Shown in pieces: positions 13,670 through 41,656 of a stretch of 64,000 nt of DNA. The stretch comes from Bacteroidia bacterium (GTDB lineage Bacteria > Bacteroidota > Bacteroidia > 2-12-FULL-35-15), in the NCBI GenBank assembly GCA_045805205.1, contig JBJMLR010000011.1, forward strand, positions 467,803-531,802. The letters run 5' to 3'. The notes under the pieces are model-generated. The model was not told the DNA's origin. It saw nothing but the letters and a program-made list of their open reading frames with translations, and made no database searches. The position numbers and the translations under genes are program-made. The stretch's first letter is position 1. Each line of letters opens with the position of its first letter.

Positions 13670-15463
13670 ATGAAAAGAGTAAACACATCGATCAGTACCA
13701 TCACCATTATTTCATCGCTTGCGTTGACATCGTTAGTGTTTTGCTTTTTCGGATGGATGTATTACGGCCGGCAAAAGACACAGCATTTTACGGAGCTTAA
13801 TTCCAGCCTGGACCGGACAAGCCATCAGCTTTCGAAAGGACTCTCGATAGCGGTGTGGAATTTCAACGAAAACCAGGTGGAAGGAATTCTTGAAAGCGGA
13901 ATGCTCGACAAGGACATCGATGGGATCTCAATTGAATATAATGATCAGGACAAAACGATCATCTCGATACTCCGGGATGGCGGTGCGCAAACGAAAACCG
14001 TAAATAAGAAAATTTCTCCCCTCAAAGATGCGCTCGTTATTCAAAATGACATCAGGTACGACGACGATATAGTTGGAAAGCTTACGATCTATGGCACAAC
14101 CCGGTTTGTATACCGTAAGCTTGAAAAAGAACTTACGCTGATCGCACTATTTATTTTGCTGCTGATCGGGATCATGATGCTTGGGATTTACTGGATACTT
14201 TATCTTATTGTTATCAAGCCCGCCCAGGCGCTCGAAAAATTTTCACTCTCGATCACCGCCGAAAATCTAACCCATGCAGAGATCGATAGCAGTAAATATT
14301 ATCGTGAATTTGAGAACCTCGGCAATTCGCTTCAAAAAATGATCTCGTCGCTGAACCTGAGCTACAAAAATCTGGAGGAAAGTGAAAAGCGGTTTAAAGA
14401 TATTGCCAACCTGCTTCCGATGAGTGTCTTTGAACTTAATCTCGAAGGGCATTTCACATTTATGAATGACACCGGGTTCAGGCAATTTGATCTTACCCGG
14501 GAAGAGGTAGAAGGCGGGAAGCGTTTTTCAAGTACCATCCATCATGATTATCTGAAAACCGCTTTCGAAGCGAGGAATCTTCTTGCAGCTGACGCTAAGC
14601 GTACGTCGGTAGAATACAAGATCCTGCAAAAGAACGGAACCTACCTCACCATGCTTTTCAATGCCGCACCTCTTTTTAAAAATGGAGTATTGGCTGGTTT
14701 TATCGGCGCAGGTCTGGATGTAACCGAGCAGCGCGCAACCGAAGCAGCGATCAATGAATTGCTTCGTCTTGATTTTAAAAAGGAGCAGGAAGCGGAAAAG
14801 CAAAAAGCGCTTGCGCTGATCGAAGGACAGGAAAAGGAGAGATTGAGGATCTCCCGCGAAGTTCACGATGGAGTGGGACAAATGATGACGGCAATTAAAT
14901 TAGCCAGTGAAAGCATCGATCCTTCATCGATCCAGTCAAAACAAAACGCGGAAAAATTCGAATACACGAAAAAGCTTATTACAGAGGTCATTACCGAGTT
15001 GCGGCAGATTTCGAGGGACCTTTCTCCGACATTCTTATACGATTATGGTCTTTTTTCAGCGGTAAACCAGCTTGTAAATAACCTGTCGAGTTTCAGCGAT
15101 GTAACGATCAGGCTGAATTCGAATATTCAAAAAGAACGATTTACCCTGCAAGTGGAGATCACGTTATACCGGATCGTCCAGGAGGTATTGAACAATGCGA
15201 TGAAATATTCAGAGGCAAAGAATATCAAGATCAATCTTCTTCTTGATGCGGAGTTCCTGGAGCTGACGGTTGATGATGACGGCATGGGCTGTGATCTCCA
15301 GATCCTCCGGCAGTTGAGCCCTCCAAAGGGAAACGGCTTGAAAAATATAATTTCACGTGCTAATCTCATTGGCGCAAATGCTACAATCGATTCTGCACCG
15401 TTCCGGGGATTTCATATCAGTGTACAGGTGCCATTGGATCGGGAAGAAGAGCCGGAATTATAG
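13670..15463 (+). CDS. Sensor histidine kinase (HisKA_3 / NarL-partner type) with a PAS domain
   Basis: Two TM segments flank a periplasmic domain. A PAS-like region is present. The H-box EKERLRISREVHDGVGQMMTAIKL is HisKA_3 type. A C-terminal HATPase_c is present (NAMKYS...LELTVDDDGMG). Confidence 0.8.
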   Translation: MKRVNTSISTITIISSLALTSLVFCFFGWMYYGRQKTQHFTELNSSLDRTSHQLSKGLSIAVWNFNENQVEGILESGMLDKDIDGISIEYNDQDKTIISILRDGGAQTKTVNKKISPLKDALVIQNDIRYDDDIVGKLTIYGTTRFVYRKLEKELTLIALFILLLIGIMMLGIYWILYLIVIKPAQALEKFSLSITAENLTHAEIDSSKYYREFENLGNSLQKMISSLNLSYKNLEESEKRFKDIANLLPMSVFELNLEGHFTFMNDTGFRQFDLTREEVEGGKRFSSTIHHDYLKTAFEARNLLAADAKRTSVEYKILQKNGTYLTMLFNAAPLFKNGVLAGFIGAGLDVTEQRATEAAINELLRLDFKKEQEAEKQKALALIEGQEKERLRISREVHDGVGQMMTAIKLASESIDPSSIQSKQNAEKFEYTKKLITEVITELRQISRDLSPTFLYDYGLFSAVNQLVNNLSSFSDVTIRLNSNIQKERFTLQVEITLYRIVQEVLNNAMKYSEAKNIKINLLLDAEFLELTVDDDGMGCDLQILRQLSPPKGNGLKNIISRANLIGANATIDSAPFRGFHISVQVPLDREEEPEL

Positions 15464-15494
15464 TTCACACGCCAAGACTTGGTCTAAAGCTTTT

Positions 15495-15532
15495 TATTTC
15501 CCCGAAATCTTCACAAGAACTTCGGGGAAATA
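15495..15532 (+). repeat. Hairpin element copy 1: 12-bp perfect stem tatttccccgaa / ttcggggaaata
   Basis: Seen directly. The partner copy is at 18373-18421. Confidence 0.7.
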
Positions 15533-15542
15533 TAATCAGATA

Positions 15543-15567
15543 GTGTCAATTAATTGACACTTTTTAA
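15543..15567 (+). terminator. Perfect 20-bp palindrome agtgtcaattaattgacact followed by TTTTT, at a convergent gene junction
   Basis: Seen directly. It overlaps the last codons and stop of the minus-strand barrel gene, about 80 bp after the kinase stop. Confidence 0.6.
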
Positions 15568-18000
15568 CCTTCCGCTTTCCTCGGCATTACTTCTCTTCAC
15601 AGTTGGATTAATTTTCATTTTACCGAACTTCCATATTATGTAGATACGAAATCTTCGGGTATCATTTCTTTCAACATAATAAGAATATTGCCCGCCTACC
15701 TGATTGGTGTTTGGCTCGTAATCAGTTCTAAATACATCAAATAAACTTAACGATATATCCAATTTTTTATCGATTATAGTTTTAGAAACAGTAATACTTG
15801 CATCACCAACCGGATAATAATATTGCACACCCTCTTTAAAACCGGAGCTATAAAAACCCTGCAGTTGTAGTTTAAATTTTTTCGGGAGAGCAAATTCAAA
15901 CGTAAAATTGGTCATGAACTGAAAAGTTTCTGAGTTAGCCGTGGTTCCATTTACACTTCCTTTAAAATTTCGATACATGCCAACGTTATACAAATTAAAG
16001 CTGAACCATTTAATTTGTTTTTGTAAAAAAAGACTTAATGATGCATTGTTGCGTTGCGGATAATTAAATACAGTGTCTATCGTTACATTTGTTCTCGGAT
16101 TTCCATAAGAATAATAATATATCATATTATTTGTTTGCTGGTAAGCTGCGCTCACTGTAATAAAATTGTCAAAAGTATAATCTAAGTTCAGGTAGTGGCT
16201 GTATTGTGGCTTTAGGATTGGATTTCCTGTGCCTTTGCTAAAAGGATCATTAAACACAGTTGCCGGATTCATCTGATCGTAACTAGGTCTGTCAATCCGA
16301 TAGCTGTAATTTGCCAGAAGGCTGTTTTTTTTATTCAGTTCATAATTGATAGAACCGCTGGGAAAAAAATTTATGTAATCCCGATGTAACCTATAAGGTT
16401 TCGGCAGATTATTTGCATCAATTAGCGTATACTCGGATCGCAGGCCGGCTTTTGCTTCCCAACTTTTAATTTTTTTTCCTAATGTAAAATATCCTGCTAA
16501 TATCCGCTCATGATAGCGATAGTGATTAGAATAACTGGTATCCGAATAAAGCTGTCCGCTGGAAGGATCAGTAAGCTGAACATTTGCATTGCTTCCATTG
16601 TCTACGAAACTTGATTTTAAACCTGCGTCTAAGTTTGAAGATTTTTTGAACTCTTTTGTGAAATCAAGATTTTGAGTGTAAATATTAAAGTTGTTATTTA
16701 TAGTTGAACCAAACCGATTGATGGGCAACACCTCAAGGTTTGTATTATTGTAATAGTGGTTTGTGGTAAATCGTGAAAATTGCTCATTATAGTTAGTATA
16801 ATCAGTCGAGAATTGAACTTGTGTGAGAGAGTCGAGTTTATGTGTGGCACTTAAAATTACTGAGGGATTAAAAATAGTTTGCTGGGTACCAATATTGAAC
16901 TTAATGTAATTATATGCATACGGATTTCCGCCTATAATATCTTCCTGCGCGTTTTCCTGATTTGTTATCGTACCTGAACTGCCATTTACATTGAGCTCTA
17001 TACTCGTTTTTTCGTTTACATCATATTCTATGCCTCCATTCAAAAATAAATTATTATGCAAGGGTGTTTGTTTCCCCTGAGACAATAACTGGAAAGTACT
17101 TGTTGAATCTTTTATACTTCTTAAAAAGTAATTTTTTGTTTCAAAATGCAAATAAGAATAGGTAAGATTTGCAAATACGGTTAGCTTGTTTGATTTATAG
17201 TTAAGCGAAACAAAAGTCCCGGCCCGGGCATAATCCCCTTGGCTTGCACTTTGTGCAAGGCTTCCGCTAAATCCTTTTAATTTTGCTTTTTTCAGCACAA
17301 TATTTATTAATCCTCCGGATCCGCTTGCATCGTATTTTGCAGGTGGATTTTTTATTAATTCAATATAAGAAACCGATTCGGCAGACATACCCATAAGCAG
17401 ATTTATCATTTGACTGGTTGGTATTTGTTGCAACTTTCCGTTCAGCAAAAAGCGTACACCACCGCGACCATTTACAGTGATATTGTTTTGTGCATCAATA
17501 CTAACACCAGGTACCCGCTTTAATATTTCGAAAACTGTATTGCCACCGGAAAGAATATTGTTTTCAATATTCATGATGACACTACCATTTTTTAATTCTA
17601 TGATGGGCTTCATGGTCGATACAGATATTTCCCGAAGATTTACTCCTTCTGCTTTTAAATTATAAGGATTTAAGGATATTTGTGACAGGGAATCAACGGT
17701 AATAATTTGAGACCATCCTGTTTTAAAACCTGCAGTATTGAATTTGATCAAGTAATTTCCTGGTAAAATCTTTTCTTAGATAAACTGTCCGCTATCGTCA
17801 GTAATATTTCCTTTTACAAGACTACTGTCTTTTGCATTCAGAAGCCCCATTGCGCAATAAGGTATCGGTACACTTGCCGAATCAATAACACTTCCTTTAA
17901 TAAAATTTTGAGCAGGAGAGTATAAAAAAGTGCAAAGAATCAGCGCTAGGACTAAATTTTTTTTCATAATAACGAATGTAGCGCTTTTACCGATAGACAA
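15550..18000 (-). pseudogene. SusC/TonB-dependent-receptor-like outer-membrane beta-barrel protein (CarbopepD_reg-like N-terminus plus plug plus barrel) interrupted by an in-frame TAA
   Basis: The 74-aa ORF 17776..18000 (signal peptide, ...ITDDSGQFI) and the 733-aa ORF 15550..17751 share one frame (18000-17751=249). Reading through the TAA at 17776-17778 gives ...GQFI*EKILPGNYLIKFNTAGFKTGW, a continuous CarbopepD_reg-like motif. The plug region is ILKRVPGVSIDAQNNITVNGRGG. GC content is clearly lower than the flanks. Confidence 0.7.
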
Positions 18001-18054
18001 GTAGATTATTAGTCACAGCAAAACCGGAGAGTTGGATTCATTAGGTCTAAGAAT

Positions 18055-18157
18055 GTGGACCTTGTCCACCGAAGCCCGAACGGATGACTCTTGAAAATAA
18101 AAAGCCCTTCTTCGCTCTGTTCACCTTTCAGGTGTTCAGAGCTTCGAAGGGCGAAGG
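18055..18157 (+). repeat. Structured repeat copy A: gtggaccttgtccac hairpin plus gcccttc...gaagggc stem, ending gggcgaagg
   Basis: Seen directly. It is a tandem partner of copy B at 18191-18291. Confidence 0.65.
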
Positions 18158-18190
18158 AAAATTCAGTGACAAAATTTCGAACTCAAAAAA

Positions 18191-18291
18191 GTGGACCTTG
18201 TCCACCGAAGCCTGAACGAATGACTGTTAAAGAGAAAGCCCTCCGTCGCATTTCTAACCTTGTCAGGTTCGAAAAGCTATGGAGGGCGAAG
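18191..18291 (+). repeat. Structured repeat copy B: the same hairpin plus gccctcc...ggagggc stem with a compensatory t>c / a>g change, ending gggcgaagg
   Basis: Seen directly. Confidence 0.65.
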
Positions 18292-18308
18292 GTGGAGAAT
18301 ACCGGATT
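18292..18308 (-). repeat. 17-nt exact duplicate of the tRNA-Ala 3' end (gtggagaataccggatt), an att-like footprint
   Basis: Identical to 18464-18480, which is the 3' acceptor/T-arm part of tRNA-Ala, and in the same orientation. Confidence 0.7.
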
Positions 18309-18372
18309 ATTTCATGATCCGGTAATTCCAGATCTGAAAATAGAGTATCCCAAGGCAAAGCCTTGGGCTTTT

Positions 18373-18421
18373 TATTTCCAGGAAATCTTCACAAACAAGC
18401 TTGCAAGACTTCCTGGAAATA
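18373..18421 (+). repeat. Hairpin element copy 2: 12-bp perfect stem tatttccaggaa / ttcctggaaata with a 25-nt loop
   Basis: Same flanks as copy 1 (gctttttatttcc...atcttcacaa). The stem differs from copy 1 by compensatory double substitutions: cc>ag paired with gg>ct. Confidence 0.7.
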
Positions 18422-18448
18422 AAAATAGCCCACGTAAAAACGTGGGCT
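18421..18448 (-). terminator. Intrinsic terminator downstream of tRNA-Ala (agcccacg-ttttta-cgtgggct plus T-run on the minus strand)
   Basis: Hairpin plus U-tract read on the minus strand. Confidence 0.6.
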
Positions 18449-18464
18449 ATACTCTGAGTTAACG

Positions 18465-18538
18465 TGGAGAATACCGGATTCGAACCGGTCGCCTCTTCAC
18501 TGCCAGCGAAGCGCTCTAGCCAAATGAGCTAATTCCCC
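18465..18538 (-). tRNA. tRNA-Ala (anticodon GGC)
   Basis: Manual cloverleaf of GGGGAAT-TA-GCTC-ATTTGGCTA-GAGC-G-CTTCG-CTGGCAG-TGAAG-AGGCG-ACCGG-TTCGAAT-CCGGT-ATTCTCC-A. The G3:U70 Ala identity pair is present, T-loop is TTCGAAT, 74 nt, and CCA is not encoded. Confidence 0.9.
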
Positions 18539-41380: not shown

Positions 41381-41410
41381 AAAGGGAAGGAGCAATTCTT
41401 CCCTTTTTTT
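41381..41410 (+). terminator. Intrinsic terminator (gggaag...cttccc plus T7)
   Basis: Seen directly. Confidence 0.65.
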
Positions 41411-41448
41411 GTTTGATTTTTGACGGAAGAGTTGTATTGAAAATAAAA

Positions 41449-41485
41449 AGCCCTTAAAAGCATTGTGTTTTAAGGGGCTTTTGTT
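41449..41485 (+). terminator. Second hairpin plus T-run (agcccttaaaa...ttttaaggggct ttt)
   Basis: Seen directly. Confidence 0.5.
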
Positions 41486-41530
41486 GTCCGACCCGAACTC
41501 CCTTCGACTTCTTTCAGGACAAGCTTCCCG
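41483..41530 (-). repeat. 11-nt duplicate of the tRNA-Gln 3' end (gttgtccgacc) fused to a dispersed-repeat copy (cccttcgacttc...)
   Basis: gttgtccgacc at 41483-41493 equals 41583-41593. It is followed by cgaac and the reverse-oriented gagtcgaaggg motif. Confidence 0.55.
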
Positions 41531-41544
41531 CGAAAGTATTCAAA

Positions 41545-41578
41545 TAAAAAAGCCTCTGATTTTCAGAGGCTTTTTTTC
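41545..41578 (-). terminator. Bidirectional hairpin terminator (gcctctga-tttt-tcagaggc) flanked by an A-run and a T-run, directly downstream of tRNA-Gln
   Basis: Seen directly. Confidence 0.7.
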
Positions 41579-41583
41579 TTAAG

Positions 41584-41656
41584 TTGTCCGACCAGGGCTC
41601 GAACCTGGACTCTTCTGAACCAAAATCAGACGTGTTGCCAGTTACACCATCGGACA
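41584..41656 (-). tRNA. tRNA-Gln (anticodon UUG)
   Basis: Manual cloverleaf of TGTCCGA-TG-GTGT-AACTGGCA-ACAC-G-TCTGA-TTTTGGT-TCAGA-AGAGT-CCAGG-TTCGAGC-CCTGG-TCGGACA-A. The U1:A72 pair is typical of bacterial tRNA-Gln; 73 nt. Confidence 0.9.

Follow-up and report, generated by a model that had tools for sequence, protein, structure and literature searches.

Two related hairpins occur in the window (the whole 64-kb stretch of DNA that was analyzed), and the evidence on balance favors their being a young, lineage-specific palindrome that grew from an ordinary terminator tail, not a conserved structured RNA. A sequence-only reading had reported the pair and had taken a compensatory double substitution in a perfect 12-bp stem as evidence of selection on RNA or DNA structure. 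Both copies are present where that reading placed them and the compensation (CC/AG with GG/CT) was confirmed. The arms do change together; selection, however, does not follow from two sequences and one event.

Anatomy of the two hairpin copies

The central hairpin of copy 1 (B1) occupies positions 15488 to 15538 of the plus strand and was delimited by folding, inverted-repeat list entry I7 and a covariance model score of 70.8 bits, while that of copy 2 (B2) occupies 18366 to 18427 of the same strand, with support from inverted repeat I1 and a score of 91.5 bits. Copy 1 reads GCTTTTTATTTCC-CC-GAAATCTTCACAAGAACTTC-GG-GGAAATA (15489-15535) and copy 2 reads GCTTTTTATTTCC-AG-GAAATCTTCACAAACAAGCTTGCAAGACTTC-CT-GGAAATA (18367-18421). 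A 28-nt 5' block is common to both, with CC/AG as its sole difference (BLAST E ~6e-6 to 1.5e-5; repeat family D2), and the partners of these bases in the 3' arm are GG/CT, which yields a perfect 12-bp stem in each copy. The changed pairs are 15/49 and 16/48 of alignment A2 (C-G and C-G in copy 1, A-U and G-C in copy 2); the remaining ten pairs of the 12-bp stem are invariant, and no further stem substitution separates the copies. The element's ends read GGGCTTTTT...AAAAATAGCCC; hairpin B is followed on the plus strand by AUAUAAUC in copy 1 and by AAAAAUAG in copy 2, and on the minus strand by AAAAAGC.

B1 closes a 14-nt loop with its 12-bp perfect stem, which extends to 15 bp, G-U pairs included, when read as minus-strand RNA. 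The stem length given by the sequence-only reading holds for both copies as a common core, but the stem of copy 2 is really 21 bp (I1): its 21-nt arms (18369-18389 and 18405-18425) are 95% complementary, B2 is the longest local inverted repeat within the window, and as minus-strand RNA the stem reaches 21-25 bp. Folding compared with shuffled sequences gave z = -5.3 for the copy 1 region on either strand, and z = -10.5 (plus) and -11.2 (minus) for the copy 2 region. Folding energies are lower on the minus strand, at -35.5 versus -30.5 kcal/mol on the plus strand for copy 1 and -67.1 versus -59.3 kcal/mol for copy 2, and an A-C mismatch kept in both copies becomes a G-U pair on the minus strand only.

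The copies are non-adjacent direct repeats with the same asymmetric loop. In place of the ~80-nt element first proposed, the homologous unit measures ~70 nt, made up of a hairpin of ~50-62 nt and ~20 nt upstream of it, beyond which the flanks show no significant similarity between the copies (p ~0.18). Misassembly at the repeat is unlikely because the longest exact words common to both copies are only 13 nt.

Genomic context

Copy 1 lies in the gap between two convergent genes: a plus-strand PAS/HisKA_3 histidine-kinase gene (13670-15463), whose stop at 15463 is 25 nt ahead of the copy, and a minus-strand outer-membrane beta-barrel gene (OMP_b-brl_3; 15550-17967), which fills the interval between copies 1 and 2. 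Upstream of copy 1, folding and repeat D2 reveal a weak 5-bp plus-strand hairpin, GCCAA-GAC-UUGGU (15471-15483), which lies 7 nt ahead of the T-run and is the decayed counterpart of hairpin A at copy 2. On its other side, sequence and folding identify a plus-strand hairpin, AGTGTCAATTAATTGACACT, followed by TTTTT (15543-15567); this is likely the terminator of the histidine-kinase gene, and the stop codon of the convergent outer-membrane gene (15550-15552) falls within its loop.

The outer-membrane gene, ~2.4 kb long, is the sole compositional outlier of the window (GC 0.347 versus 0.458 in the rest) and has an in-frame TAA at 17776-17778. Its best homologs are 68% identical, whereas neighboring housekeeping genes have relatives at 89%, and the gene was probably acquired. 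Copy 1 adjoins the edge of this low-GC block, which may be no coincidence, and copy 2 lies ~320 nt past the right edge.

Copy 2 is flanked by two convergent canonical terminators, both found by the terminator scan and by folding. Hairpin A (18349-18367, plus strand) is built on the stem CCCAAGGC-aaa-GCCTTGGG, and its U-tail doubles as the 5' arm of B2; hairpin C (also T1; 18425-18450, minus strand, read from 18450 to 18425) is the terminator of tRNA-Ala, and its U-tail, ATTTTTATTTCC, is the other arm. The earlier proposal of a smaller hairpin plus T-run ahead of each copy is thus correct for copy 2, where it is hairpin A, but at copy 1 only the 5-bp remnant is left. Folding joins the three hairpins into a composite, A-B2-C (18341-18457), closed by AGAGTAT/ATACTCT, which is a weak quasi-palindrome: outside B, comparison of the left half with the reverse complement of the right half gave p ~0.065.

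The tRNA-Ala(GGC) gene occupies 18464-18538 of the minus strand and has a Bacteroidetes-type -7 box, TACTTTTG, at 18585-18578; no such box was found just upstream of copy 1 or copy 2. A plus-strand, 3' UTR-like position had been assigned to both copies. It fits copy 1, which is 3' of the histidine-kinase gene, but copy 2 is 3' of the minus-strand tRNA-Ala, and the plus-strand ORF that spans it has no family match. On the far side of copy 2 from this tRNA gene stand two 136-nt tandem units (18049-18320, minus strand; repeats D1, D4, D6, D12 and I4), each comprising a fragment that resembles a tRNA 3' end, a GC hairpin, a tail rich in U and a GTGGAC hairpin; their tails are paralogous to the B2 arms. 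A 20-nt repeat of the tRNA-Ala 3' end (18289-18308 versus 18461-18480; D6) bounds only 152 nt.

Distribution of the element

The search for more copies that had been suggested found none in the window, at the loci of relatives or in public collections. A covariance model built from copies 1 and 2 (R1), run across the 64-kb window with filters off, returned only these two copies and their reverse strands. The contig is at least 1 Mb long, and with 64 kb of it searched, further copies may exist elsewhere in the genome. Pattern scans gave one match among GTDB species genomes, inside a coding region and with no hairpin; 63 matches in metagenomes, none of which (0/63) folds like the element; and one match in IMG/VR, which fails model R1. 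The best-looking metagenome matches (L011, L044 and L056) show substitutions between contigs and, as far as their sequences tell, seem to sit within a coding region that continues past the contig end. The pattern-scan matches in the genome, metagenome and viral collections are chance matches inside genes. A BLAST search of phages and plasmids with the copy 2 region returned nothing. At the Rfam 15 gathering threshold only tRNAs passed, which rejects a curated family of that release, and relaxing E to 10 merely added sub-threshold chance matches such as miRNA models.

Orthologs of the histidine kinase are at best only 56% identical and therefore useless for comparing intergenic DNA, and at the loci of the closest homologs of the outer-membrane gene (L072-L075) there is no element and the flanks are not homologous. 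The syntenic loci reached via IleRS (L002-L007) have the tRNA-Ala gene and lack the element; three relatives besides L002 were individually seen to have tRNA-Ala without it. L002, the closest relative available (IleRS 89% identical), has tRNA-Ala, the terminator, TTTTTTTTATTTC, GCAAAGCTTGAAAGCTTGC and the mini-helix in orthologous order, and carries the 20-nt tRNA-Ala 3' repeat in degenerate form. Its site keeps the terminator, the U-tail and the loop center without the long inverted repeat, and the ~48 nt that are missing correspond to the second arm plus hairpin A. The absence of the long stem from this orthologous site indicates that the structure is young and not conserved.

Proposed terminator-tail origin of the arms

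In its outer half each arm (GGGCTTTTTATTTYCA) matches a terminator end plus tail that recurs in this genome. The word GGCTTTTTATTT occurs 7 times (0.8 expected), and behind each of four GC hairpins, all different (T1, A, T4 and the tRNA-Gln terminator), stands GGGC-TTTTTATTT(C/T)CA. Copy 2 has a CA(G/A)G state that also appears in other terminator tails, from which it follows that the CCCC of copy 1 is derived in both arms.

These observations suggest the following course of events. The U-rich terminator tail of tRNA-Ala (ATTTTTATTTCCAGGAAGTCTT, minus strand) would have been copied, at its own locus and in inverted orientation, across a small ancestral palindrome, GCAAGCTTG, giving the 21-bp inverted repeat that is copy 2, set tail-to-tail between convergent terminators. 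About 70 nt of copy 2 would later have been duplicated at a site 2.9 kb off, where the histidine-kinase and outer-membrane genes converge, to form copy 1. Copy 1 would afterwards have shed 11 bases of its loop, and the AG/CT of its two arms would have become CC/GG. We infer that arm complementarity was kept by template-switch homogenization, by selection for stem stability, or by both. Any function would presumably be generic: within a zone of bidirectional termination, the element would add a stable hairpin that blocks read-through or 3' exonucleases. Several points count against this account. Inverted duplication is deduced from a single pairwise alignment, with the fairly distant L002, and from the borderline palindrome test given above for the composite; neither strand has a U-tract behind hairpin B, which is therefore not itself a canonical terminator. 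The account also offers no mechanism for the 2.9-kb move of the 70-nt piece. At the orthologous locus of L002 one apparently sees the long stem being born from a terminator U-tail, and on this reading the element carries little biological weight, being a further example of a lineage-specific palindrome in an intergenic termination zone.

Interpretation of the compensated substitution

Joint changes in both arms are very rarely produced by independent mutation. A single template switch between palindrome arms, however, can produce multi-base 'compensatory' changes without selection, and template switching creates and repairs stems in a single event (PMC8794818). A statistical test of covariation, as had been recommended, reached the observed score in 123 of 500 shuffles, and with two sequences and one change of two adjacent pairs such a test has no power. 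With two sequences and one event, a template switch able to mimic the pattern, no more copies found in the places searched, and L002 lacking the stem, selection on structure is unsupported. Two sequences in which two adjacent pairs changed do not provide the covariation that supports a conserved structured RNA, and the searches yielded no homolog that would enlarge the alignment. For a new functional RNA, one 'compensatory' change argues only weakly. The sequence-only reading would itself have given up its claim if no more copies existed and a single recent segmental duplication explained the pair; this is largely what was found, in that the window, the loci of relatives and public collections showed no more copies, although a simple recent duplication of a long segment is not the explanation either, because only ~70 nt are common to the two places. 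As a general caution, a double substitution that is perfectly 'compensated' between two paralogous hairpins cannot be read as evidence that RNA structure is selected, since template switching and inverted duplication leave the same pattern.

Alternative explanations

Among other readings, it is unlikely, though worth weighing, that the element is a palindromic repeat of REP/REPIN or MITE type, small and either mobile or dispersed, with more copies outside the window, spread by a transposase in trans that recognizes the hairpin as a single-stranded DNA structure. Two non-adjacent copies that agree in orientation and in their asymmetric loop, and have unrelated flanks, would fit it, as would their intergenic positions adjoining terminators, where REPs are often found, and a stem kept despite sequence change. 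The unfiltered search of the 64 kb showed no third copy, however, nor did public collections or relatives; the neighboring genes scanned include none that resembles a transposase or RAYT gene, no terminal repeats with a target duplication are evident, and the center of copy 2, like one of its arms, is ancestral at the locus (L002), a misfit with insertion. Somewhat less likely again is a functional structured RNA with pairing selected in RNA, which would flank the outer-membrane transcript as a small RNA derived from a 3' UTR or as a hairpin for cis-regulation or processing (an RNase III site, for example). The very stable stem of 21-25 bp on the minus strand of copy 2, the mismatch that pairs as G-U on that strand only, the two adjacent compensated pairs and the place of copy 1 in the 3' UTR of two convergent genes speak for it; against it stand the lack of conservation beyond this genome, the absence of an Rfam match, no promoter motif found nearby, a covariation test powerless with two sequences, and arms that are terminator U-tracts, at which most transcripts should stop before the full hairpin is made.

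We regard as improbable a reading in which recombination at the hairpins bounded an acquired module. The outer-membrane gene, low in GC, would have come in, or could go out, at a structured site, with direct hairpin repeats left on either side in the manner of an attC cassette. The only compositional outlier of the window does lie between the copies, with copy 1 adjoining its edge; its best homologs are more diverged than those of the neighboring housekeeping genes (68% versus 89%), the copies are direct repeats, and the site adjoins a tRNA gene with a duplicated 3' end (D6). Yet copy 2 is ~320 nt outside the right edge of the block, and the gap holds a mini-helix that is ancestral and contiguous with copy 2 in L002, which an insertion at the hairpin would separate from it. 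Neither an integrase or recombinase gene among the neighboring genes scanned nor attC core sites (GTTRRRY / RYYYAAC) were found, and the flanks of outer-membrane homologs elsewhere have no such element. Most doubtful of all is the specific version in which the hairpin is a site recognized as a single strand, the outer-membrane gene is a cassette captured beside the tRNA gene, and the copies are scars or active sites of a hairpin-specific recombinase encoded elsewhere. If true, it would point to a new mechanism by which Bacteroidota capture genes with the help of a hairpin; the geometry of the junctions speaks against it.

Comparison with known systems

Several known classes were rejected. A MITE is contradicted by the absence of a duplication flanking 18341-18457 or copy 1, and by L002 already having the center and one arm. 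A tRNA-targeting integrative element (attL/attR) does not agree with a tRNA-Ala repeat that bounds 152 nt only, with no integrase found in the neighboring genes scanned, or with hairpin copies that contain no tRNA sequence. For IS200/IS605 ends, defining sequence features or the enzyme gene are missing, and paired changes in both half-sites between copies are not expected of a dimeric protein-binding site.

Integron attC sites are imperfect palindromes of 57-141 nt that flank a gene in direct orientation and conserve structure more than sequence. The copies resemble them as direct-orientation imperfect palindromes flanking a gene, but no IntI gene is nearby, and a 2.4-kb gene with a 500-nt leader would be atypical as a cassette. 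This identity was rejected for want of R'' RYYYAAC / R' GTTRRRY core sites and of an integrase domain in the neighboring genes scanned, and for the misfit in junction geometry (L002). With REP/REPIN elements the hairpins have in common that they are extragenic palindromes in more than one copy, adjoin gene 3' ends and preserve the stem via paired changes; REP-type palindromes can protect 3' ends, and this element could plausibly do so too. The differences are its two copies only in 64 kb and its absence from relatives and public collections. A REP/REPIN identity is made less likely by the lack of a GTAG-type head and of a transposase-like or RAYT domain among the window genes scanned.

Likeness to intrinsic (Rho-independent) terminators is seen in the intergenic position between convergent transcription units, in outer arms that combine the GGGC end of a stem with the TTTTTATTT tract that terminators of this clade typically carry, and in hairpins A and C at copy 2, which meet the consensus; a textbook bidirectional example is present in L002. 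The central hairpin, in contrast, is inside out, with a U-run before it and an A-run after it on both strands, and its AT-rich stem of 12-21 bp is much longer than usual and runs 12 bp past the U-tracts (CCAGGAAATCTT / AAGACTTCCTGG). As a terminator in its own right, hairpin B was rejected: it has no U-tract within 0-2 nt, and the scan calls A and C, not B.

Quasipalindrome or template-switch mutation differs from all these in being a mutational process and not a functional class, and it is a candidate here, with an outgroup too distant for ancestral reconstruction. The likeness lies in the simultaneous change of two neighboring bases in both arms, in a loop indel that involves the small palindrome CAAGCTTG, and in a new arm that is the reverse complement of adjacent ancestral sequence; PMC8794818 describes the mechanism.

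Two related hairpins with a compensated stem

Copy 1 (15488-15538) and copy 2 (18366-18427), both written on the plus strand, share a 5' block, GCTTTTTATTTCC-NN-GAAATCTTCACAA, and a 3' arm, ACTTC-NN-GGAAATA, where copy 1 has CC at the first NN and GG at the second, and copy 2 has AG and CT. Because the variable bases of one arm are matched by those of the other, the 12-bp stem is perfect in each copy, exactly as the sequence-only reading had described. The 28-nt match between the copies is far above chance (BLAST E about 1e-5), and their flanks are unrelated further than about 20 nt upstream (p about 0.18). The loop of copy 2 is longer by 11 bases, and its arms, lengthened by a U-run and an A-run, reach 21 nt with 95% complementarity, making it the longest local inverted repeat of the window. 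Folding of the wider regions around the copies, neighbouring hairpins included, gave z-scores of -5.3 to -11.2 relative to shuffled sequence. The central hairpin (B) does not count as a canonical terminator in its own right, since a U-run precedes it and an A-run trails it on either strand.

Copy 1 sits in an 86-nt gap between two convergent genes, a plus-strand PAS/HisKA_3 histidine-kinase gene (stop at 15463) and a minus-strand OMP_b-brl_3 outer-membrane gene (stop at 15550-15552), and is followed by a hairpin with TTTTT (15543-15567) that is likely the terminator of the kinase gene. The TonB-dependent-receptor-like outer-membrane gene (15550-17967, minus strand), adjoined by copy 1 at its 3' edge, is the only compositional outlier in the 64-kb window (GC of 0.347 versus 0.458 elsewhere); identity to its best homologues is no higher than 68%, whereas neighbouring housekeeping genes have 89% relatives. 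The gene was probably acquired horizontally and is possibly decaying; it contains an in-frame TAA (17776-17778), and the NCBI annotation covers the 733-aa part after this codon only. The 500-nt region upstream of it contains no Bacteroidetes -7 promoter box. Its closest homologues (L072 and L074, 4840-5000 in each) share a well-conserved 5' leader of about 160 nt within a 550-670-nt upstream gap; this leader has no Rfam match, and no conservation of it was detectable in the window. It may represent a leader or regulatory RNA of the receptor subfamily that has yet to be described.

The tRNA-Ala locus and its counterpart in relatives

Located 40 nt downstream of the tRNA-Ala(GGC) gene (18464-18538, minus strand), copy 2 has a canonical terminator on each side: hairpin A (18349-18367, U-tract on the plus strand) and hairpin C, or T1 (18450-18425, U-tract on the minus strand). 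The arms of the central hairpin are the U-tracts of these terminators, and a 7-bp stem closes the entire block. Downstream of the tRNA, positions 18049-18480 (minus strand) consist of three decayed tandem repeats (repeat families D1, D4, D6 and D12, inverted repeat I4), each comprising a tRNA 3' part, a GC hairpin, a U-rich tail and a second hairpin, GTGGAC-aag-GTCCAC. An exact 17-20-nt tRNA-Ala 3' end recurs at 18289-18308 and folds as an acceptor/T-arm-like mini-helix; the 386-nt region downstream of tRNA-Ala has a folding z of -6.5.

The element is absent from the loci around the isoleucyl-tRNA synthetase (IleRS) of relatives (L002-L007, protein identity 85-89%), although tRNA-Ala(GGC) is present. 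The closest relative, L002, is collinear with the window downstream of the tRNA (L002 5235-5417): a terminator of different, compensated stem is followed by its tail, TTTTTTTTATTTC, by GCAAAGCTTGAAAGCTTGC, a small palindrome corresponding to GCAAGCTTG in the copy 2 loop, and by a mini-helix holding a degenerate tRNA 3' end, the counterpart of window 18320-18286. Missing in L002 are about 48 nt, comprising the second arm of hairpin B and hairpin A, which are exactly the block common to both copies (D2). By this comparison, the centre of copy 2 and one of its arms are ancestral at the locus, and the long stem was gained recently in the lineage of the window. Some IleRS homologues from related Bacteroidota (P0024, P0025, P0092 and P0113) are 140-180 residues longer and bear an additional PF04480 (DUF559) domain, in some cases together with PF18741, which points to insertion of an endonuclease-like domain into the synthetase or its fusion to the enzyme.

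The motif GGCTTTTTATTT, a terminator stem end with an interrupted U-tract, is strongly over-represented in the window (7 sites versus 0.8 expected), and GGGC-TTTTTATTT(C/T)CA is found after four distinct GC hairpins: T1, A, T4 of the tandem units, and the terminator of tRNA-Gln. A textbook bidirectional terminator in L002 (2082-2118) also carries the GGCTTTTTATTT tail; this excess and recurrence suggest terminator modules that may be duplicated or strongly constrained in the clade. The CAGG state of copy 2 agrees with the other tails (CAAG, CAAT), so the CCCC state of copy 1 is derived, in both arms. As for tRNA-Gln (41583-41656, minus strand; region 41404-41600), an 11-nt copy of its own 3' end lies exactly 100 nt downstream (41483-41493), and the tail of one of the terminators downstream of it is identical at 19/19 positions to 18091-18109 of the tRNA-Ala repeat region.

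Search for further copies

A covariance model built on both copies (R1, filters off) found no third copy in the 64-kb window, where Rfam returned two tRNAs plus sub-threshold noise. When one genome per GTDB species was scanned for the exact pattern, there was a single match, within a gene and without a hairpin; a looser pattern gave 63 matches in the metagenome collection, none convincing against the model, and a pattern scan of IMG/VR gave one that did not fit it. BLAST searches of phages and plasmids with the copy 2 region returned nothing. The window and these public collections thus provide no evidence that the copies belong to a wider family. The three best-looking of the metagenome matches, in marine contigs (L011 1083-1117, L044 174-208, L056 1255-1289), carry a hairpin closely mimicking copy 1, GTTTCCGCGAAATCTTCACAAGCATTCGTGGAAGC; we judged these chance look-alikes, given substitutions between contigs and an apparent location inside an opposite-strand, metallopeptidase-like gene that runs off the contig.

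Origin and role of the element

The paired change between the copies is non-random, but it is one event affecting two adjacent pairs in two sequences, and shuffled controls reach the observed covariation in 123 of 500 trials. Template switching in replication, in which one palindrome arm is copied onto the other, produces multi-base compensatory changes and can build complete new stems in a single event (PMC8794818). Two features are consistent with this process: the second arm, which is apparently newly born, and the 11-nt difference between the loops, which is palindromic. The compensated substitution is confirmed as an observation, and the proposal that it reflects selection on RNA or DNA secondary structure is only partly supported; a stable stem may plausibly also be favoured by selection, but this would be generic for hairpins of termination zones.

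With confidence a little above even, we favour a young palindrome that would have been born from a terminator tail at the tRNA-Ala locus and then duplicated once, locally, with at most a generic hairpin role within bidirectional termination zones. It is unlikely that the hairpins belong to a dispersed, REP/MITE-like repeat whose other copies went unseen, none having been found in the 64-kb window or in the public collections scanned. We regard a structured RNA as rather improbable: a mismatch that the copies have in common, A-C if read on the plus strand, becomes G-U on the minus strand, which also folds better, a weak pointer to RNA, but a covariation test on two sequences has no power, and an independently transcribed small RNA is argued against by the lack of a Bacteroidetes -7 box just upstream of either copy, although one precedes tRNA-Ala, at 18585-18578. 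There is very little probability that the hairpins bound a cassette carrying the outer-membrane gene, even though this compositional outlier lies between them with copy 1 at its 3' edge: copy 2 is about 320 nt past its opposite edge, copy 2 and the ancestral mini-helix adjoin each other just as they do in L002, a scan of neighbouring genes revealed no recombinase, and loci of outer-membrane gene homologues (L072-L075) have no such element.

The tandem repeats downstream of tRNA-Ala resemble the repeats after E. coli tyrT.
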